From Candidatus Melainabacteria bacterium (GTDB taxonomy: Bacteria > Cyanobacteriota > Vampirovibrionia > 2-02-FULL-35-15): 64,000 nt of DNA. A program made the position numbers and the translations under genes. The notes beneath the pieces were generated by a model, which was not told where the DNA came from, ran no database searches, and saw nothing but the letters and a program-made list of their open reading frames with translations. Positions 1,004 through 63,436 of this stretch are shown here, in pieces (positions within the stretch are counted from its first letter, which is position 1; the number at the start of each line of letters is the position of its first letter). The stretch lies in NCBI GenBank assembly GCA_023250155.1, contig JAHFBG010000005.1:89057-153056 (forward strand). The letters run 5' to 3'.

Positions 1004-3406
1004 ATGAATAAAGAAATAAAACAAAAAAACTTTAGAACTTTAGTTGATCTGTTTATTTGCATAGTTATTGTTTTAGTCTTATTTATACCTACAATAAGTA
1101 GACCTTGGATCTCTTATGATGAGAGAGGCATCACTAATGAGTTGTATCTGCCCATACCAACCTCTTTCCAAGAGATATACGAGATTATTGAAAGTTTTGG
1201 TTTAAATTATAGTGTAACTTCTTCAAATACCCTCTACAGTTCAAATTACATAACAAGAACATGTCCACTAAGTACAATCTTAACGCTATCAGTTTTATAT
1301 CTATTTAAGAGCAATTCAATTTACTATCACCTAATGAATTTGTGCTTACATTTAATAACTACTTGTCTTATTTTTATTATTTTAAAGAACTTGCTAAAAG
1401 CCTGTCCAAGACCGTTGATAATTCTTTTAACAATTCTCTGGGGAATTCATCCAGTAGAACTAGAGTCAGTATTATTATCAACAAACTTTGGAGCACTTAT
1501 ATCTTACATGTTCTTTTTTATCTTTCTATTAGACTTCTTAAAAAACAAAGAAAAAAATAAGTCCATTCTTCGACAATGCTTAATACCTCTACTCTTCATG
1601 ATTCCAATGCTCACCAATGAATATATAATCACACTCCCTCTTGTTCTATTTACATTCTCATTCTATGAAAATTATAAAAATAATGATTTTAGAAAAGCTA
1701 TTTCTTTAACCATCATTCACACTAAGCCTTATTTTATTGGACTATTTATATACATACTTTATTTCTTTTTTATATCTCACTACAGTATAAGCCAAACTTC
1801 AAACCATAACTATTTTCTTCTGTTAATAGAACGGGGTTTTTGGCTTTCTCCTCAAGTATTTTTTCACTTGATTAAGCTTGTTTTCTTTCCATTCAAGCTC
1901 TCAATTGATCAAGGAGTCTTTGTAACACTTGGAAAATCTTTATTTGACCCTTATTCTATTTTTTGTATTTTATTTATGTCTATTTGGCTTTTTGTACCAT
2001 TGATATTTTTTCTATCAAAAAGAAAACTAGAAAATCTATTTCTTTTAACCTGGTCTTTTTTCTTTGCTCTATTACCATTTCTACATATTCTTATGCCATC
2101 GTATACCCTTGCTGCAGAACGATATCTTTATGCTCCGTTAGCAATAATGATCATAGGGGTAGGAATCATGTTAAATGAAAACATCCATAAGTACGGGTCC
2201 CGCCCACAAAGTGGGCGAGGCTCGCTCGAAAACCGAGTGGCACGACCCGCACCTACTAGTAAGGGCATACTGCAGTATGCCCTTACACTAATCATAGTGC
2301 TTTGTTTCATGCGCTCATATATTCGAACACAGGACTGGAAAAATGATTTCACTCTTGCCAATTCAACTATTCAAATCACTGACAACTTACTGTTAAAAGG
2401 TATAAGAACACAAGACCTAGGACAAACATTTTTAAAATCAAATCCCAATAATCTTACTAAAGCTTATAAACACTTCACGAAAGCTCAAGAATACTTCTAC
2501 CAAGCCATAGAAAAACTAAAACAAGAAAAAAAAGAAAATCCAAAGATACCACTCATTCTAAAAAGCTATGGACTTGATTATGATTCTCTTAGTGTAAAAG
2601 CTATATATCTAATCTGTGTTGAACCGTTTAACAACAATTCAGAAAATAAAAAAGACTATGAAGATGCCTTGAGAATTCTTATCCCTTATTTAAAACACAT
2701 TAAGATCTTTGATCCACGCACGCTGGAACTCTATGCAAATCTCTTAATAAAAAATAATGATCTAGAAAGTGCAAAAAAGATTTTTCTTTATGCTTACAAT
2801 AAATACCCAACCCAGCAAACATTGCTAATTTCACTAATTCGGTTAAATAGAGATATTGAAAGAAACTTACCCGAAGCAAAAAATTATCTCTTAAAAGCTT
2901 TAAGGTTGTATCCTTATTCAAAAGATATATTGTTCGAAGCAGTAAGATACTATCAGACAGAGAACAATTTAGAAGAATATTCTAGATATGCATATTTATA
3001 TGGACTACGAGCTCACTCTGCTTTTACTTATAGAGAAGCACTTACAGGATTTTTAACTCTTGGAACTCTTGATAAAGCCAAACAAGCTGTAGAAAAACTC
3101 TTGAGACTTGATCCAAGCAATCCAAGAACTTTATATCTTGTAAGTAGTTACTATATAAAAATACAAAACTATGATCTAGCCATTACACTACTAAATCAAG
3201 CATTAACACTTAATCAAAATAAAGACAAACAACTCGAATTTGATTTAAATAACTTATTAGCTAACTTATATCTGGCTCAGGGAAGCATAGAACAAGGCAT
3301 TCACCACATAATAGAAGCATTAAATATAGACAAAGAAAATATAGTCAATAAAAACAAAATGAATGAACTAATTAAAAGATATAGACTAAACCTACATGTA
3401 CCTTAA
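1004..3406 (+). CDS. Polytopic membrane protein with C-terminal TPR repeats, TMTC/PMT-like GT-C glycosyltransferase candidate; carries an in-frame GC-rich repeat insertion
   Basis: N-terminal multi-TM domain with a D-E (SYDERG) motif in the first loop. Conserved FWLSPQVFFHLIKLVFFPF block shared with ORFs 12653..14908 and 31935..33962. C-terminal TPR-like helical repeats. Confidence 0.55.
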   Translation: MNKEIKQKNFRTLVDLFICIVIVLVLFIPTISRPWISYDERGITNELYLPIPTSFQEIYEIIESFGLNYSVTSSNTLYSSNYITRTCPLSTILTLSVLYLFKSNSIYYHLMNLCLHLITTCLIFIILKNLLKACPRPLIILLTILWGIHPVELESVLLSTNFGALISYMFFFIFLLDFLKNKEKNKSILRQCLIPLLFMIPMLTNEYIITLPLVLFTFSFYENYKNNDFRKAISLTIIHTKPYFIGLFIYILYFFFISHYSISQTSNHNYFLLLIERGFWLSPQVFFHLIKLVFFPFKLSIDQGVFVTLGKSLFDPYSIFCILFMSIWLFVPLIFFLSKRKLENLFLLTWSFFFALLPFLHILMPSYTLAAERYLYAPLAIMIIGVGIMLNENIHKYGSRPQSGRGSLENRVARPAPTSKGILQYALTLIIVLCFMRSYIRTQDWKNDFTLANSTIQITDNLLLKGIRTQDLGQTFLKSNPNNLTKAYKHFTKAQEYFYQAIEKLKQEKKENPKIPLILKSYGLDYDSLSVKAIYLICVEPFNNNSENKKDYEDALRILIPYLKHIKIFDPRTLELYANLLIKNNDLESAKKIFLYAYNKYPTQQTLLISLIRLNRDIERNLPEAKNYLLKALRLYPYSKDILFEAVRYYQTENNLEEYSRYAYLYGLRAHSAFTYREALTGFLTLGTLDKAKQAVEKLLRLDPSNPRTLYLVSSYYIKIQNYDLAITLLNQALTLNQNKDKQLEFDLNNLLANLYLAQGSIEQGIHHIIEALNIDKENIVNKNKMNELIKRYRLNLHVP
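2191..2288. repeat. GC-rich nested-palindrome element inserted in frame in a CDS (encodes ..SRPQSGRGSLENRVARPAPTSKGILQYAL..)
   Basis: Local GC spike in AT-rich CDS. Hairpins cgggtc..gacccg, cgcccac-aaa-gtgggcg, and perfect palindrome agggcatactgcagtatgccct. Shares the tcccgccca..ggcgaggctcgct core with the insert in the UbiD gene at 62501..62605. Confidence 0.5.
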
Positions 3407-22038: not shown

Positions 22039-22043
22039 TTAAA

Positions 22044-22160
22044 AAAAGCATCTTTCATTCCACAGTGCCCTCCCTCAACTCCTCTGACCATTAACTAAGC
22101 GTTAACGGTTCCCCTCGGGGCATTCGGGAGTGGCACTGCTACATCATGCTTTTTTTTACA
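22044..22160 (+). repeat. Copy A of a ~110-nt nested-hairpin repeat element ending in a T-tract; probably acts as a terminator
   Basis: aaagcat…agtgccctccc…ccattaactaagcgttaacgg…cccctcgggg…gggagtggcact…atgcttttttt. Second copy at 23077..23185. Confidence 0.5.
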
Positions 22161-23042: not shown

Positions 23043-23076
23043 ATGTATTAACTGGTATTGCATCTCTGAATACAAA

Positions 23077-23185
23077 AAGCATCTTACACTCCATATTGCC
23101 TTCCCTCAGCCCCTCCGACCATTAACTAGGCGTTAACAGTTCCCGTCGGGACATTCGGGAATGGCAATATTAAATCGTGCTTTTT
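23077..23185 (+). repeat. Copy B of the nested-hairpin repeat element
   Basis: About 85% identical to copy A. Differences are compensatory in stems (agtgcc/ggcact becomes attgcc/ggcaat; ctccc/gggag becomes ttccc/gggaa). Confidence 0.5.
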
Positions 23186-50995: not shown

Positions 50996-52234
50996 GTGAT
51001 TCTAAAGAAGTTAAAACTTACCAATTTTAGGAATTACTTAGATTTCGAGGAAGGATTTCATCATTTAAAAACCATTATTATTGGCCAAAACGCACAGGGT
51101 AAAAGTAATATACTTGAAGCTATTAACATTCTTGCTACTAGTCAATCTGATAGAGCAGAAAAAGATAGTAATCTCGTATATTGGAATAAAGAGTACGCTC
51201 TTATATTTGCAAATATTAAAACAAAAGAAGATGACTTAGATATTGCTCTGCAAATAAATTCAACAGGAAGAAGAAAACTTAAAATGAATGGTGTAGCAAA
51301 AAAGGCTCCACAAGCCGATCTTGTAGGAAATTTTTTCAGTGTAATGTTTTCTTGCGATGATTTATATCTTATTAAAGGCTCGCCATCGATTCGAAGAAAC
51401 TGGATTGACAATGTATTATTTCAGCTTGACACAAAATACCATAAAGCTCTTCAAAACTATCAAAAATCAGTAGTTCAAAAAAACGCTCTTTTAAAAAAAG
51501 CACAAGAAGGCAACCTGTCAAGAAAAGCATTAAAGGAACAATTAGATATTTGGAATGAGCAAATTTTAAACTTTGGCACAGAGGTCATTTATACCAGAAT
51601 AAATTTTATAGCCGATCTACAACCCATAGCAAAAGACTTCCAGGACAGGATTTCAAAACAAACTGAAGATTTAGATATGATTTACAAGTCAACAATTCAG
51701 AACTTAGCACTCAGCACTCAGCTATCAGCTATCAGCACAGAAACAGAGAAGCAGGAGACAGGAGACAAGAAACAGGAAACAGAAGACAAGAAGATCATGC
51801 CTCATGCCTCATGTCTCAATCCCCAATCCTTGAGAGAATCCTTCAAACAAGCTCTTGATAAGTCCTTTGACGAAGAGTTAGCCCGTGGTCAGTCAGTAAT
51901 AGGTCCACATAGAGATGATTTAATATTTCTAATAAATAAAAAAGAAGCTAAATCATTTGCAAGCCAGGGACAACAAAGATCCTTTGTACTTTCTATAAAA
52001 CTTGCTGAGTTACAGATTATTGAAAACAGGAAAGGTGAAATCCCTGTTTTACTTTTAGATGATGTATTTGCAGAATTAGATGAAAGTAGACAGGATTTTC
52101 TATTACATAATTTGCCTAAAAATATACAAATTTTTTTAACTACAACTCATCTAAGTGATGTTCAAAAGGAGTTTTTACAAGAGGCACAAATATTAGAAGT
52201 AGAAGCAGGTAAAATAAAAGTAAAACATTTATAA
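50996..52234 (+). CDS. recF: DNA replication/repair protein RecF, with a ~45-aa low-complexity insertion
   Basis: LKLTNFRNY…GQNAQGKSNILEAI Walker A, C-terminal LLLDDVFAELD Walker B. Extra STQLSAISTETEKQETGDKKQETEDKK..PHASCLNPQSL segment. Confidence 0.85.
   Translation: MILKKLKLTNFRNYLDFEEGFHHLKTIIIGQNAQGKSNILEAINILATSQSDRAEKDSNLVYWNKEYALIFANIKTKEDDLDIALQINSTGRRKLKMNGVAKKAPQADLVGNFFSVMFSCDDLYLIKGSPSIRRNWIDNVLFQLDTKYHKALQNYQKSVVQKNALLKKAQEGNLSRKALKEQLDIWNEQILNFGTEVIYTRINFIADLQPIAKDFQDRISKQTEDLDMIYKSTIQNLALSTQLSAISTETEKQETGDKKQETEDKKIMPHASCLNPQSLRESFKQALDKSFDEELARGQSVIGPHRDDLIFLINKKEAKSFASQGQQRSFVLSIKLAELQIIENRKGEIPVLLLDDVFAELDESRQDFLLHNLPKNIQIFLTTTHLSDVQKEFLQEAQILEVEAGKIKVKHL
51706..51835. repeat. 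In-frame low-complexity microsatellite-like insertion in recF (cagcactcagctatcagctatcagc; ggagacaggagacaagaaacaggaaacagaagacaag; atgcctcatgcctcatg; ctcaatccccaatcc)
   Basis: Direct repeats read directly. Shares the tcaatcc motif with the UbiD insert. Confidence 0.45.
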
Positions 52235-52242
52235 TAAGTACA

Positions 52243-52584
52243 ATGCTTGAAAATACTTTCGACAAAAAAACAAAAAGACAAAAAAGTAATCTCACAAAAA
52301 TAAGTGAATTAATTACCGTTGTTAAGGAAAATCTTGGCATTGAGCAAAGCTTAAAAGTAAAAGCATTAAAAGAGTTGTGGCCTTTAGTTACAAGTTTCAA
52401 CATTTCAAAACAAAGTCAGCCAGCATATTTTGACAGAGAAAACAATCTTGTCATTTCAGTAAAGAGCGGGACTCTTGCAGTAGAACTGTCTATGCAAAAA
52501 AGTAGTATTTTAGAGCGTTTAAAACAAGCAACAAAAGACACAAGCATTACTTTTAAGGATATTAGGTTTATAAATAGGTCCTAG
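52243..52584 (+). CDS. DUF721/DciA-like protein (putative helicase loader) in the canonical recF–gyrB slot
   Basis: 113 aa. Position between recF and gyrB. ELWPLV…LVISVKSGTLAVELSMQKSSILERL pattern. Confidence 0.5.
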   Translation: MLENTFDKKTKRQKSNLTKISELITVVKENLGIEQSLKVKALKELWPLVTSFNISKQSQPAYFDRENNLVISVKSGTLAVELSMQKSSILERLKQATKDTSITFKDIRFINRS

Positions 52585-57254: not shown

Positions 57255-60224
57255 ATGAACAAGTATATTCCAGCCAAATTATTTTTATCTTTTATATTAA
57301 TGGTCCAGTTATTGGTCTTACAAAATTTTTATCCTTTATATTCTCAAGCAGCGATGCCAACCTGTAGTGGAACCACAGCTGTATGCCCTTCTGGCCAAAC
57401 TGCGGTTTGTACAAATGGCCATGTTGGTACAGCAAAGTGTGTAGCACAAATTTATGGTGCACCTTATATACCAGGCTGTGAAACAGAGACTGCTTTCTAT
57501 ACTGATGATGCTAATTGTGTTAGCTCATCAACTACTAGCTCATCAACTACTAGTTCATCGACCACAAGCTCATCAACTACCAGCTCTACTAGTGGAACAT
57601 TGTCGATTACAAGTAATTCCCCTTTACCAAATGGCTCATTAAATACTTCTTACTTTAATTCACTTCAAGCTACAGGTGGTTCCCTTCCATATACCTGGTC
57701 ATGGGTTACTGGTTTCCTGCCAAGTGGTTTATTATTTACTACAAACGGTATATTGAACGGTACTCCTACTCAATCTGGTACTTTTACTCCTACCTTTAGA
57801 GTTACTGATTCTTTTAATCAAACTGCTCAACGAACTTTTTCTCTTACTATTGGAGCTCCTATATCAATTACAAGCAGTTCTGTTTTACCTAACGGTACAT
57901 CAAACTCTTTTTATTCTAATACACTTCAAGCTACTGGCGGCACTCTTCCTTACTCCTGGACATTTATTGCAGGTACTTTACCTAGTGGTTTATCATTTAG
58001 TTCTAATGGTGTTTTAAGTGGTACTCCTACTCAATCGGGTACATTCACTCCTACCTTTAGAGTTACTGATGCTTTTGGACAATCCAGCCAACAAACCTTC
58101 TCCCTTACAGTAAATTCTTTTCTGTCAATTACAACTAATGCTTTATCTAATGGTACTTTAAACTCTTTTTATTCCAATACACTTCAAGCTACTGGCGGCA
58201 ACCTTCCTTATACCTGGGCATTTATTGCAGGTACTTTACCTAGCGGTTTATCATTTAGTTCTAATGGTGTTTTAAGTGGTACTCCTACTCAATCGGGTAC
58301 ATTCACACCTACCTTTAGAGTTATTGATGCCATTGGACAATCTAGCCAAAGAACTTTCTCTCTTACTGTAAATTCCTCCCTATCAATTACAACTAGTGCT
58401 TTATCTAATGGTACTTTAAACTCTTTTTATTCCAATACACTTCAAGCTACTGGCGGCACTCTTCCTTACTCCTGGACATTTATTGCAGGTACTTTACCTA
58501 GTGGTTTATCATTTAGTTCTAACGGTGTCTTAAGTGGTACTCCTACCCAATCTGGTACTTTCACTCCTACCTTTAGAGTTACTGATGCTTTTGGACAATC
58601 CAGCCAACAAACCTTCTCTCTTACGGTAAATTCTTCTCTGTCAATTACAAGTACTACTTTATCTAACGGTACTTTAAACTCTTTTTATTCCAATACACTT
58701 CAAGCTACTGGCGGCACTCTTCCTTATTCTTGGTCATTTATTGCAGGTACTTTACCGAGTGGTTTATCATTTAGTTCTAATGGCGTTTTAAGTGGCACTC
58801 CTACTCAATCTGGTACATTCACTCCTACCTTTAGAGTTACTGATGCTCTTGGTAGCACTTTTCAAAGAACTTTCTCTCTTACTGTCAATTCTTCTCTATC
58901 AATTACAACTAGTGCTTTATCCAATGGTATTTTAAATACTTTTTACTCTTATACAGTCCAAGCTACTGGCGGTACTCTTCCATATAGCTGGTCACTTATT
59001 GCTGGTACTTTAGCAAGCGGTTTATCGTTTAGTTCAAATGGTATTGTAAGTGGTACTCCTACTCAAACAGGTACTTTTACTCCTACCTTTAGAGTTATTG
59101 ATGCCCTTGGACAGTCTAGCCAAAGAACTTTCTCTTATACCATTGCCTTACCATTATCTATTACAACTAGTCCTACCCTACCTAATGGTTCTCTAATTGC
59201 TTCTTACTCCAATACACTTCAAGCTACTGGTGGTACTCTTCCTTATACCTGGTCATTTATTGCTGGTACTTTACCTAGTGGTTTATCATTTAGCTCAAAT
59301 GGGGTTGTAAGTGGTACTCCTACTCAAACAGGCACATTCACTCCTACTTTTAGAGTTACTGATGCTCTTAGTCAATCTAGTCAACGAACTTTCTCCATTA
59401 CTGTAGATTCTTCTCAATGCCCTGTATGTCCACTTGGTTCTCCATTAGTACAATGCTCTAATACTTGTACACAACAAGTTATTAATTGTGAAGGAATGAG
59501 CTATACAAATAGCTGTGACTTCCAAATGAGTTATTGCGGCTGTATCCCAACAACATCTTCAAGCAGCTCATCATCTTCTTCAAGCAGCTCTTCTGGAGGG
59601 GTTTGTCAAAGACCTTGTGGAATAGGTTGTTGTACATCTAATCAACTCTGTGTTGTATATGATCCTTGTATGGGGAGTCCTGGTTGTTTAGCACCTATTG
59701 TTCAATATTGTGCTTCACCAACCGGTGGTGCAGTCAACCTCCCATTCTGTTCATATGGAAGTGTAATGTGTGATGTGGGTTCACCGTTGTGTTCTTCAGG
59801 AAGCAATCTTCCTATCTGTGGTTCAACACTAGGATTTACTGGTGACTTAGCTGGTCCTGCATGTACAAATCTAACAACAACAGTATTAAATGTAGGAAAT
59901 GTCTCTTGTTCACAACAACCTCTAAGCAGACTTTCTCTTGATAATGATGTTACTTGTAATAAGAACAAGCTGTGTCCATCAGGGAAGCGATATAGAGCTT
60001 GTAGAGAAGATAGAACAACATGTAAGTGTGTTTGTCCATTTAGAATTAGAGGACAAAAAGTTACACCTACTTGTAATTCCACAGATACACCAATCTGTTC
60101 AAAAGGCTTAACACCTAAGTGCGGAAATGAAAACAATATTCCATTCTGCTCTAAAGGAAAACTATTCTGTGTAGAACCAACTGCACAATCGATAGATTTA
60201 ACTGATACTATTGAGTGTAAGTAA
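57255..60224 (+). CDS. Secreted surface/adhesin-like protein: signal peptide, Ser/Thr-rich linker, ~7.5 tandem He_PIG/cadherin-like Ig repeats, poly-Ser tract, Cys-rich C-terminal domain
   Basis: MNKYIPAKLFLSFILMVQLLVL signal sequence. SSSTTSSSTT linker. ~81-aa repeats with LP.G..F...G.LSGTPT..GTF.PTFRV.D motif. S13GG tract. Many Cys in the last 230 aa. Confidence 0.65.
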   Translation: MNKYIPAKLFLSFILMVQLLVLQNFYPLYSQAAMPTCSGTTAVCPSGQTAVCTNGHVGTAKCVAQIYGAPYIPGCETETAFYTDDANCVSSSTTSSSTTSSSTTSSSTTSSTSGTLSITSNSPLPNGSLNTSYFNSLQATGGSLPYTWSWVTGFLPSGLLFTTNGILNGTPTQSGTFTPTFRVTDSFNQTAQRTFSLTIGAPISITSSSVLPNGTSNSFYSNTLQATGGTLPYSWTFIAGTLPSGLSFSSNGVLSGTPTQSGTFTPTFRVTDAFGQSSQQTFSLTVNSFLSITTNALSNGTLNSFYSNTLQATGGNLPYTWAFIAGTLPSGLSFSSNGVLSGTPTQSGTFTPTFRVIDAIGQSSQRTFSLTVNSSLSITTSALSNGTLNSFYSNTLQATGGTLPYSWTFIAGTLPSGLSFSSNGVLSGTPTQSGTFTPTFRVTDAFGQSSQQTFSLTVNSSLSITSTTLSNGTLNSFYSNTLQATGGTLPYSWSFIAGTLPSGLSFSSNGVLSGTPTQSGTFTPTFRVTDALGSTFQRTFSLTVNSSLSITTSALSNGILNTFYSYTVQATGGTLPYSWSLIAGTLASGLSFSSNGIVSGTPTQTGTFTPTFRVIDALGQSSQRTFSYTIALPLSITTSPTLPNGSLIASYSNTLQATGGTLPYTWSFIAGTLPSGLSFSSNGVVSGTPTQTGTFTPTFRVTDALSQSSQRTFSITVDSSQCPVCPLGSPLVQCSNTCTQQVINCEGMSYTNSCDFQMSYCGCIPTTSSSSSSSSSSSSSGGVCQRPCGIGCCTSNQLCVVYDPCMGSPGCLAPIVQYCASPTGGAVNLPFCSYGSVMCDVGSPLCSSGSNLPICGSTLGFTGDLAGPACTNLTTTVLNVGNVSCSQQPLSRLSLDNDVTCNKNKLCPSGKRYRACREDRTTCKCVCPFRIRGQKVTPTCNSTDTPICSKGLTPKCGNENNIPFCSKGKLFCVEPTAQSIDLTDTIECK
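57597..59410 (+). repeat. Tandem ~243-nt coding repeats (~7.5 copies); some units near-identical at nucleotide level
   Basis: Repeat units 2 and 4 encode identical peptide stretches (TLPYSWTFIAGTLPSGLSFSSNGVLSGTPTQSGTFTPTFRVTDAFGQSSQQTFSLTVNS). Confidence 0.7.
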
Positions 60225-61783: not shown

Positions 61784-63436
61784 ATGGCCTACAGAGATCT
61801 TAGAGAGTTCTTAAATAAACTTGAGGAGCTAAATGAACTTCAAAGAATAAGAGTTCAGGTTGACCCTTATTTAGAAGTCTCTGAAATTACAGATAGGGTC
61901 TCAAAGGGTATACATGAGAAAAACAAAGCCTTACTTTTCGAAAATATTAAAGGGTATCAGATTCCAATATTGATTAATACCTTAGGCTCTTATAAAAGAA
62001 TGAATCTAGCTCTTGGTATTAATTCCTTTAAAGAGATTGCTCAAAGGATTGAAAAGTTCCTTGAAAAGAAAGTACCTGACAATCTTATTGGCAAATTAGG
62101 TATGCTGCCAAAATTAATAGAACTAGCCTCAATCCCTCCCAAAATGACTAAATTTGCTCCATGCCAAGAAATAGTGATTACAAATCCAGCTGAGCCTATG
62201 TTAGATAAGCTCCCTATTATTACAGCATGGCCTGAAGATGCAGCCCCTTTTATTACACTTACAGTAGTTATTACTAAAGATCCAAAAACAGGTGTTAGAA
62301 ACATTGGAATGTATAGGCTTCAAAAGCTCAACAATAGTACTACCTGCATGCACTGGCATAAGCATCATGATGGAGCACAAAACTATTTAGAAACAGCTAT
62401 TGAATCCCAGTTAAATCAAGTTAAAGATACTTTGTGTAAGGAAGTAAGTGCTATTGAAAACGAAAAAGCTCTAGAAGAATTTGTTGGTATAATGAGCAAT
62501 CCGCGGTCAGCGGTCAACAATCAGCCAACAGCTTCTACTCAATCCTCAATCCTCCCGCCCAATGAGGCGAGGCTCGCTGGAAGCGGCAATCCTCAATCCT
62601 CCCGTAAAATGGAAGTAGCTGTAGTTATAGGCTGTGATCCTAGTGTTATGTACGCAGCATCAGCACCTCTTCCACCAGGAATAGATGAGTTTCTATTTGC
62701 TGGATTTTTAAGAAGTTCACCAGTAGAACTTATTAAGTGTAAAACAATAGATGTTGAAGTTCCTGCAACAAGCGAAATAGTCCTAGAAGGATATGTAGAT
62801 TTAGATGAACTTACTACTGAAGGTCCATTTGGAGATCATACAGGCTTTTACAGTATGCCAGCCTTATTCCCAAAATTTCATATTACAGCAATGACACATA
62901 GAAAAGATCCTATTTATTCAACCATTATTGTAGGAAAACCTCCTATGGAGGATTGTTATATGGGTAAAGCAACAGAACAAATTTTCTTACCTTTAATTAG
63001 AGTGTTTTTACCTGAAATTGTAGATATGAATTTACCATTTGAAGGCGTATTTCACAATTGTGCAATAGTAAGCATAAAGAAAAAATACCCTGCACATGCA
63101 AAAAAAGTAATGAGTGCTATTTGGGGTATAGGACAATTAATGTTTACAAAATATGTTATCGTCGTAGATGATGATATCAATGTTCATGATTTATCTGAGG
63201 TGGCATTTAAAGTTTTTGCAAATACTGATCCCAAGCGTGACTCAATGTTTAGTGAAGGACCTACCGATATATTAGATCATGCATCTACCATATCGTCTAT
63301 CAGTGGCAAGATGGGACTAGATGCTACAAGAAAATGGAAATCAGAAGGATATACCCGTCAGTGGCCTTCTGAAATGACCATGGATTCTAAGACCAAAGAT
63401 CTTGTATCAAATCGATGGAATGAGTACGGTTTATAA
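61784..63436 (+). CDS. UbiD-family (prenylated-FMN-dependent) decarboxylase with ~45-aa in-frame GC-rich insertion
   Basis: N-terminal YRDLREFLNKLEE…, FENIKGY; central and C-terminal UbiD blocks. 550 aa, longer than typical UbiD because of the SNPRSAVNNQPTASTQSSILPPNEARLAGSGNPQSS insert. Confidence 0.8.
   Translation: MAYRDLREFLNKLEELNELQRIRVQVDPYLEVSEITDRVSKGIHEKNKALLFENIKGYQIPILINTLGSYKRMNLALGINSFKEIAQRIEKFLEKKVPDNLIGKLGMLPKLIELASIPPKMTKFAPCQEIVITNPAEPMLDKLPIITAWPEDAAPFITLTVVITKDPKTGVRNIGMYRLQKLNNSTTCMHWHKHHDGAQNYLETAIESQLNQVKDTLCKEVSAIENEKALEEFVGIMSNPRSAVNNQPTASTQSSILPPNEARLAGSGNPQSSRKMEVAVVIGCDPSVMYAASAPLPPGIDEFLFAGFLRSSPVELIKCKTIDVEVPATSEIVLEGYVDLDELTTEGPFGDHTGFYSMPALFPKFHITAMTHRKDPIYSTIIVGKPPMEDCYMGKATEQIFLPLIRVFLPEIVDMNLPFEGVFHNCAIVSIKKKYPAHAKKVMSAIWGIGQLMFTKYVIVVDDDINVHDLSEVAFKVFANTDPKRDSMFSEGPTDILDHASTISSISGKMGLDATRKWKSEGYTRQWPSEMTMDSKTKDLVSNRWNEYGL
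62501..62605. repeat. GC-rich repeat element inserted in frame in the UbiD gene; contains a ctcaatcctcaatcctcccg direct repeat and the shared tcccgccca…ggcgaggctcgct core
   Basis: Sequence read directly. The core matches the element at 2191..2288. Confidence 0.5.

Follow-up and report, generated by a model that had tools for sequence, protein, structure and literature searches.

Why does a decarboxylase gene of a Candidatus Melainabacteria bacterium carry a GC-rich patch in its reading frame, and where did the patch come from? The question is raised by a 64,000-nucleotide stretch of contig JAHFBG010000005.1 (assembly GCA_023250155.1, positions 89,057 to 153,056), hereafter the window, in which a UbiD-family gene reaches 58% GC over positions 62500-62599 versus 31.6% for the whole window, one of only three GC-rich islands in the 64 kb and a patch that the initial annotation of this DNA had rightly picked out. 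Here, we report that the patch (62501-62605) is composite and that the sole inserted element in it is a 33-nt double hairpin, which is well supported as a solo copy of a dispersed repeat family present in more than 100 low-GC contigs, mostly from Patescibacteria plus Melainabacteria. Our joint reading, to which we give a probability of about 0.72, is that this solo copy sits in a heptamer array at a loop of UbiD and is a derivative of a unit made of a small GIY-YIG nuclease gene plus the hairpin.

The host gene and the loop in question are as follows.

61784..63436, + strand: UbiD-family decarboxylase gene, 550 residues, defined by its open reading frame (ORF) and by Pfam domains UbiD_N, UbiD and UbiD_C; it hosts the insert.
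62396..62602, + strand: clade-specific hypervariable loop, residues ~205-273, between the HHDGAQNY motif and the RKMEVAV strand.

All three UbiD domains and the conserved residues are present in the protein, which matches E. coli UbiD (2IDB/5M1B) with an E value of ~1e-114, and its AlphaFold model, with a mean predicted local distance difference test (pLDDT) score of 72, matches 2idb_A at a template modelling (TM) score of 0.79. The gene order MurA-UbiD-PAP2-PmbA is preserved in relatives, and homologues of the protein bear Melainabacteria or Obscuribacterales annotations. Since the exact 550-residue protein occurs in three separate ENA metagenome assemblies, with identical DNA in all three, an assembly artefact is unlikely. 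The columns N173, H194/H195, E302, E346, D351 and H352, invariant among 46 aligned orthologues of the clade, are all retained in the window protein and align with conserved motifs of E. coli UbiD; we take them to have metal-binding, prenylated flavin mononucleotide (prFMN)-binding and catalytic roles. The segment from HHDGAQNY to RKMEVAV is 50-100 residues long and unalignable in all 46 orthologues, while E. coli UbiD is without this long loop, having ~7 residues there, and the HMMER match breaks at query residues 204/274. In the AlphaFold model pLDDT is below 50 at residues 193-202, 210-257 and 259-271, and the loop after HHDGAQNY is predicted to be disordered; the insert itself makes up residues 258-268, in coil, with a block-mean pLDDT of ~30. 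The initial annotation had expected the insert to lie in a loop, with a position in the catalytic core as the mark of a pseudogene, and the low-pLDDT, hypervariable location with all invariant residues kept agrees with the former. The 11 added residues are probably neutral for UbiD, and the extra length of the protein is, by comparison with the orthologues, mostly an ancestral variable loop common to the clade.

Within and around the insert the following parts can be told apart.

62555..62587, + strand: inserted 33-nt GC-rich double hairpin, CCGCCCAATGAGGCGAGGCTCGCTGGAAGCGGC, translated in frame as PPNEARLAGSG (11 residues).
62557-62569, + strand: hairpin A of the insert, CGCC/GGCG, 4 bp.
62572-62587, + strand: hairpin B of the insert, GCTCGCT GGA AGCGGC, intact.
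62566-62578, + strand: core 13-mer, common to the insert and the copy near 2200.
62538..62554, + strand: left part of a heptamer array, (CTCAATC)2 CTC, found by Tandem Repeats Finder (TRF) with period 7 and 100% match.
62588..62601, + strand: right part of the array, AATC CTCAATC CTC, then CCGT, from TRF and orthologue comparison.
62503..62516, + strand: GCGGTCA twice, a mini heptamer repeat that adds to the GC-rich patch, read from the sequence and below the TRF score threshold.

The boundary of the insert is ambiguous by 1 nt, and the predicted peptide across it reads ...SSILPPNEARLAGSGNPQSSR... That the insert is in frame in a UbiD-family gene had been proposed beforehand and is borne out by the Pfam domains and the E. 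coli match. The same annotation had described a 20-mer direct repeat on both sides of the core as a target-site or terminal duplication, and had the element lengthen UbiD by about 45 residues. The repeat exists: CAATCCTCAATCCTCCCG occurs at 62540 and again at 62587, one copy on either side of the core, with 0.01 such pairs expected by chance; its exact length is 18 nt, not 20. An element of ~100 nt resembling a MITE (miniature transposable element with inverted repeats), in which this repeat of 18-20 nt would be the ends or the target duplication and ~45 residues would have been added, could appeal to exactly this bracketing and to a CCG in the repeat that lies beyond the heptamer units. The DNA of the UbiD orthologues in three related loci (L004, L005 and L006; L and P numbers denote loci and proteins of our collection) decides otherwise. 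The window has (CTCAATC)2 CTC, the 33 nt, and AATC CTCAATC CTCC; L005 has (CTCAGTC)4 directly ahead of R-K-M-E-V with no insert; L004 has CTCAATC CTCAATC CTCAGCC CTCAGTC with no interruption; and L006 has one heptamer unit, again without insert, all three at the same codons as the window. Excising 62555-62587 restores a perfect (CTCAATC)4 and the peptide TQSSIL-N-PQSSRKM, where P0004 has TQSSILSPQSSRKM; please note that the nearest available UbiD orthologue is 77% identical. Because orthologues without the core carry arrays of one to four units at this place, the 18-nt direct repeat is two halves of an older heptamer array and no target-site duplication. An insert of 47 nt, i.e., core plus one duplicate, was also considered and rejected, as this repeat spacing is not a multiple of three and the ancestral frame would read ...ILP* with a stop. 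The termini of the element offer just CCGC/GCGG, the flanking repeat is absent from the second copy near 2200 and from ~100 family members elsewhere, and the family consensus ends exactly at the 33-nt boundaries. We regard the MITE-like explanation as very improbable, and the figure of ~45 residues, which mixes the element with the ancestral loop, gives way to 33 nt and 11 residues in place of ~105 nt.

The array deserves a comment of its own. Within the window, a RecF-like ORF (50996-52234) has three heptamer arrays back to back and in frame at 51697-51818, (TCAGCAC)6, (CAGGAGA)5 and (TCATGCC)3.4, and this genome seems prone to such arrays within its genes. The PmbA gene of L005 holds a 30-nt copy of the element within (CATCAAC)4, the same architecture as at the UbiD site. 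Heptanucleotide short tandemly repeated repetitive (STRR) sequences were reportedly described by Mazel and colleagues in 1990 from heterocystous cyanobacteria. The array that flanks our element shares the period of 7 with them, as do those in the window RecF and in L005 PmbA (a likeness of the flanks only), whereas the unit sequences differ and the arrays here lie within coding regions of non-photosynthetic cyanobacterial relatives.

A second copy of the element lies near the other end of the window, together with two further structures.

2200..2241, + strand: second family copy, a 42-nt double hairpin, in the TPR membrane-protein gene 1004-3406, in another frame (RPQSGRGSLENRV).
2191..2252, + strand: outer stem GTACGGGTC / GACCCGCAC around the 2200-2241 core, giving a three-way junction with a fold of -53.9 kcal/mol (z = -7.7).
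2260..2285, + strand: perfect 26-nt palindrome TAAGGGCATACTG|CAGTATGCCCTTA, adjoining this copy, from sequence and fold.

In the 64 kb there are exactly two places, in UbiD and at 2200, where TCCCGCCCA is followed after 4 or 7 nt by GGCGAGGCTCGCT, and only 0.07 matches to the core 13-mer with up to two mismatches are expected in the window; the shared core that had been reported for these two places stands. As they are translated in different frames (PPNEARLAGSG versus RPQSGRGSLENRV), the two copies share DNA and not peptide. The site at 2200 is a loop between hydrophobic segments of the TPR membrane protein, and ~20 residues there are missing from the orthologues P0122 and P0123 and from the paralogue P0124 of the same 174-kb contig. 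With different frames, and with orthologues of both host genes lacking the insert, the claim of a second, independently inserted copy also holds. The right arm of the adjoining palindrome is host coding sequence (QYALT; YALT is also in P0124) and the left arm is its inverted copy, a pattern suggestive of inverted duplication or template switching where the element went in.

Two scans place these copies in a family. A genome scan with an exact pattern, one genome per GTDB species, gave 38 loci, 17 of which are in low- or mid-GC metagenome-assembled genomes of Saccharibacteria, several Parcubacteria lineages, two Melainabacteria, a Brocadiaceae and others; about 20 Streptomyces matches, all in one conserved gene, were set aside. 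A metagenome scan with a slightly different pattern gave at least 120 loci, from which high-GC matches were set aside as chance or gene-specific. A scan of viral contigs gave two matches, both in GC-rich contigs and with surroundings unlike the family form, which were taken as chance. The family form is (Y)TC | CCGCCCA - loop - TGGGCG - AG - GCTCGC(C/T) - stem-loop - (G/A)GCGGC, 30-54 nt long; of 87 parsed copies, 74 (85%; p ~3e-23) have lengths divisible by three. The variable part of hairpin A contains 102 nested pairs against 28.5±5.4 in shuffles, and that of hairpin B 238 against 41.7±7.8; this strong self-complementarity indicates that the hairpins have been kept through sequence change. 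On the 5' side there is a C at -1 in 82 and a T at -2 in 62 of 85 copies, while the 3' flank is weakly A/G-rich; there are no target duplications and no terminal inverted repeats, and any one genome has few copies. All frames of the GC-rich core are free of stop codons, and since lengths are moreover multiples of three, copies that land in tolerant gene loops are simply translated. The UbiD insert holds all three family blocks, i.e., the 5' CCGCCCA, the central GGCGAGGCTCGC and the 3' (A/G)GCGGC; its 33 nt are a multiple of three, its flank is CCTC (YTC), it is without target duplication, its start and end coincide exactly with the consensus ends, and it is a near-match to the 33-nt members in L027, L071 and L078.

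No existing name was found for this family. Rfam at gathering thresholds returned one tRNA only for the whole window, noise only for the element region at E values up to 10, and no family at the element in 16 element-bearing loci; full-text literature searches found no description of it. A protein module as the explanation was rejected, because frame and strand of reading vary across the two window copies and the family at large. That the two GC-rich stretches are an assembly chimera or alike by chance, a thought prompted by the source being a metagenome-assembled genome, is ruled out by the core statistics, by the identical protein and DNA in three assemblies and by the more than 100 related copies, and its probability is practically nil.

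Where the copies sit bears directly on whether the family moves. Of the 87 parsed copies, 45, or about half, are spanned by a stop-free frame of 175 codons or more; both orientations and all six reading frames are represented, with the host gene opposite to the CCGCCCA strand in 37 cases and on the same strand in 8 (p ~1.5e-5). Among 20 spanning ORFs given to Pfam, 17 are housekeeping or core-metabolism genes: PNPase, PheT, the acetyl-CoA synthetase AcsA (two loci), DnaG (two), PolX, GatB, CysRS, Mur ligase, trigger factor, IF-2 (two), HolA, ribosomal protein L11, SSB and a multi-domain oxidoreductase. Other copies are 5 nt upstream of lepA, in a 23S-5S spacer, and beside tRNAs. In L047, L066 and L092 a duplicate of the tRNA 5' part precedes an intact tRNA, and the element sits in this duplicate at the D-loop (TAGCTC^AG); an element inside a functional tRNA was considered for these three loci and rejected, the real tRNA being intact downstream and the element in the partial duplicate.

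Related Melainabacteria genomes differ in presence or absence of the element at three loci, from which we conclude that the family has moved: the window has the element at the UbiD site, which is vacant in L004, L005 and L006; the window also has it at the TPR membrane-protein site, where P0122, P0123 and P0124 do not; and the PmbA site has the 30-nt copy in L005 and a clean 10-residue gap in the window-type contig L001 and in L006. This last case also agrees with the initial annotation in that the element has moved; the recent activity that it argued for as well is, with the nearest available UbiD orthologue at 77% identity, no more than a possibility. The loop of UbiD has itself been used more than once, as the following two orthologues and a third one indicate.

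L167, 2001-3683: UbiD orthologue with a loop palindrome, GCGTCATTGCGAGGAG...CTCGCAATGACG, translated RHCEES...ARNDV.
L168, 2001-3539: UbiD orthologue with a loop palindrome, TGTCATTCTGAGCGAAGCGAAGAATC..., translated CHSERSEES.

In L169, from another lineage, the UbiD loop carries the same element, inverted and centred in a 12-bp palindrome, and in L167 and L168 long GC-rich palindromes of another type occupy the same place; because of these the loop appears as a tolerant landing site used repeatedly.

A different account would make the element a conserved functional hairpin, i.e., a protein- or RNA-binding site, or a local slippage or template-switch product kept by selection, and in either case not mobile. 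The core is invariant and the loops covary; the element occupies one residue position in IF-2 of L123, L080 and L132 (switch I, between DYIRK and GGITQ; two genomes identified by Pfam and the third, L132, from its sequence) and one and the same residue position in DnaG of L117 and L029; spacers of rRNA and tRNA operons contain copies, on the strand that is transcribed; and the perfect palindromes made of host sequence that adjoin the copy at 2200 would fit as well. The shared IF-2 and DnaG positions could go back to ancient insertions that were inherited and kept under constraint, or could mark a hot spot. The differences in presence and absence between closely related genomes at three loci, the occurrence in both orientations, six frames and unrelated contexts with no Rfam match, and the exact-match search pattern, which inflates the apparent conservation of the core, all speak against a fixed functional hairpin, and we consider this account quite unlikely.

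Palindromic insertions in frame in conserved genes have a classic precedent in the Rickettsia palindromic elements (RPEs), known from one genus (Ogata et al. 2000; reviewed in PMC3184786). The present family resembles RPEs in that it is found in frame in housekeeping genes and is translated as extra surface peptides, in that it also lies in RNA genes and spacers, and in that there is no transposase inside the element; the in-frame palindromic insertion in conserved genes by which RPEs are recognised is seen here. It is set apart by size, range, composition and gene link: RPEs are about three times longer, at ~105-146 bp (~100-150 bp as a size criterion), and found in Rickettsia only, whereas our family is 30-54 nt long, spans several phyla, has a strongly GC-rich sequence although its hosts are AT-rich, and has a link to a GIY-YIG gene.

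This link came from an unbiased all-against-all clustering of 1,614 ORFs of at least 90 codons from 102 low-GC loci, in which the sole recurrent small ORF family besides host genes was a single-domain GIY-YIG protein of ~85 residues, in seven loci, with Pfam E values of 1e-12 to 1e-21; NCBIfam gave nothing above its cut-off and no name for these proteins. Four instances are listed.

L170, 1422-1900 (Patescibacteria): GIY-YIG gene, ~85 residues, directly after a tRNA gene.
L171, 1428-1911 (Patescibacteria): GIY-YIG gene, ~85 residues, directly after a tRNA gene.
L156, 3000-3460 (Patescibacteria): GIY-YIG gene, ~85 residues, directly after a tRNA gene.
L041, 6430-6900 (Patescibacteria): GIY-YIG gene, ~85 residues, directly after a tRNA gene.

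In L041, L029 and L156 the stop codon of the GIY-YIG gene touches the double hairpin or is overlapped by it, the layout being tRNA 3' end - gene - GGTTC[element]GAnTCC...ACCA, so that the T-loop (GGTTC^GA) of a tRNA 3' fragment, itself a duplicate, is divided by the element. Homologues ascertained independently, by protein search alone, tell the same story: in 20 of 53 the C-terminus is xFPP(I), as encoded by GGnTTC|CCGCCCA, so that the element overlaps the 3' end of their genes, and four read on into the core as GRGS, GEAR or ARLA, its three frames. DNA of two independent loci, L170 and L171, has the full element downstream of the GIY-YIG gene and next to tRNA-Gly(CCC), and L172, whose homologue is without the xFPP(I) tail, has a half element upstream instead; the tRNA before the gene is tRNA-Gly(CCC) in L170-L172, and the C-terminal GFPPI is encoded by the element junction.

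Another GIY-YIG gene was observed in L132 (1700-2400), between two tRNA-Ser copies, where the T-loop of the upstream copy is split by a different double hairpin (GCCAGGTCATCCGACCTGGC GCCCAGTCGGATGACTGGGC); the arrangement suggests several nuclease-hairpin pairs with the same target logic.

Small proteins of this kind have been characterised elsewhere and are, besides the RPEs, the nearest parallel known. SsnA-type single-domain GIY-YIG proteins are site-specific single-stranded DNA (ssDNA) nucleases, each cutting beside its own NTS/SRM hairpin repeat, and the NTS-ssnA-NTS layout has been likened to an insertion sequence (IS), with few NTS (2%) located in genes (Chenal et al. 2025, PMC11893778). 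The points of likeness to our family are these: a single-domain GIY-YIG protein of ~80-95 residues stands beside its own GC-rich hairpin repeat of 20-50 nt, solo copies are dispersed, the repeat is oriented, and gene plus repeat resemble an insertion sequence; a flanking single-domain GIY-YIG gene, as expected of Ssn systems, is seen for the family in Patescibacteria, and none was found in the window or in the Melainabacteria loci examined. Unlike the Ssn repeats, our family has two adjacent hairpins with a CCGCCCA...GGCGAGGCTCGC...GCGGC core and no GTCAT leader, numbers few copies per genome and not hundreds, has many copies in genes and in frame as compared with 2% for NTS, and has its gene-bearing unit at tRNA genes, where it splits a duplicated T-loop. 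The other palindromes in the UbiD loops of L167 and L168 are loosely like NTS/SRM repeats and do not match the strict SRM pattern; the window has a single match to that pattern, at 52449, unrelated to the element.

Repetitive extragenic palindromic (REP) sequences, their bacterial interspersed mosaic elements (BIMEs) and the ends of IS200/IS605 elements offer a second model, in which a REP-like or palindrome-associated transposable element (PATE)-like repeat would be moved in trans by an HUH Y1 transposase (a REP-associated tyrosine transposase, RAYT, or IS200/IS605 TnpA) and the GIY-YIG gene would be a mere neighbour. Much in the family would suit it: short, GC-rich, imperfect hairpins, two of them subterminal and each with an extrahelical base; neither target duplication nor terminal inverted repeats; a short conserved 5' target, YTC; the strong strand bias; and, in L125 (3700-6400), four element copies within 7.4 kb set in BIME-like mosaics of other GC-rich hairpins between genes. 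However, REP sequences are extragenic and species-specific and have a GTAG motif, whereas the family here is largely intragenic, common to several phyla and without GTAG, its 5' flank being YTC. No Y1 transposase was recognised among the recurrent neighbour clusters of the 102 loci, where most clusters are unannotated and most genomes incomplete; no transposase-sized cluster was flagged among the 1,614 ORFs, and Pfam named only the GIY-YIG cluster and some hosts. Small ORFs that recur beside the element form one family only, the GIY-YIG one, and the overlap with the 3' end of its gene comes from homologues found without reference to the element. A Y1 transposase as the mover is, on balance, unlikely.

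We come back to the joint reading, a 33-nt solo copy in the heptamer array of UbiD that derives from a nuclease-plus-hairpin unit. The GC-rich patch is built in three layers. All UbiD orthologues of this Melainabacteria-like clade carry a long, unconserved and predicted-disordered loop after HHDGAQNY; in this lineage a (CTCAATC)n array forms the end of the loop, just ahead of R-K-M-E-V; and the 33-nt copy entered the array after ...CCTC, in frame and with no target duplication, adding PPNEARLAGSG. Short copies such as this one may be solo, non-autonomous derivatives of the GIY-YIG nuclease-plus-hairpin unit, and they may spread as single-stranded hairpin DNA through cut-and-repair or copying initiated by the nuclease, with a preference for YTC^R sites, much as Ssn nucleases go with NTS/SRM repeats or RAYT transposases with REP elements. 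The anatomy, the ends of the insert, its absence from orthologues, the family membership, the hairpin covariation, the length bias and the tie to the GIY-YIG gene are observed; that the GIY-YIG nuclease mobilises the element is what we infer from their association in Patescibacteria.

Several points weigh against this reading. The nuclease link is drawn from Patescibacteria, because neither the 64-kb window nor the Melainabacteria loci examined (~70 kb) yielded a GIY-YIG ORF, and only 9 of the 102 element-bearing loci have a GIY-YIG gene. The best solved relative of these GIY-YIG proteins is the UPF0213 protein 1ZG2 (E=6e-6), and they may or may not belong to the Ssn clade (cd10448); the SRM pattern HGTCWYN(0-2)YYVSBRHN(0-5)WNVSBRGN(0-2)RNCYNB is matched by none of 99 family members, 12-nt flanks included. 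The IF-2 and DnaG copies of different genomes have an identical core and differing loops, which could mean functional conservation and not selfish spread. Hairpin A of the UbiD copy is weakened (4 bp), and this copy on its own folds no better than shuffled sequence (z ~-1).

A bolder version would see here an undescribed mobile unit that uses an Ssn/UPF0213-type ssDNA nuclease as its transposase, integrates in hairpin loops, and sheds translation-proof solo copies of 30-54 nt across lineages. Its integration targets would be T- and D-loops of tRNAs, palindrome centres and YTC^R sites, and its solo copies would accumulate inside essential genes of Patescibacteria, Melainabacteria and other lineages. 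We put this forward tentatively, as a possibility that we doubt somewhat more than we credit.

Two further observations were made in the window. Two intergenic copies of ~115 nt (22040-22154 and 23071-23185), 84% identical and each just upstream of an ORF, share the same long-stem fold (z = -5.8 and -4.9) with compensatory changes and have no Rfam match even at E<=1; they are a candidate for an unknown cis-regulatory RNA. A 258-nt tandem repeat at 57657-59415 (6.8 copies, 83% identity) is unrelated to the element and is assumed to encode a repeated protein domain in a large surface-type protein.

In-frame palindromic selfish insertions have been known mainly from Rickettsia; the family here is far shorter and belongs to several phyla, and ribosomal protein L11, IF-2, DnaG, PNPase, UbiD and aminoacyl-tRNA synthetases are among the proteins whose genes carry it. 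What Ssn-type nucleases do outside Neisseria, and whether they propagate their own repeats, are questions on which a family tied to a small GIY-YIG gene at tRNA genes bears, and the present results supply a definite sequence together with candidates for the target preference and the enzyme. Such inserts also inflate and distort the protein alignments and annotations of uncultivated bacteria, and they mark loops that tolerate insertion.

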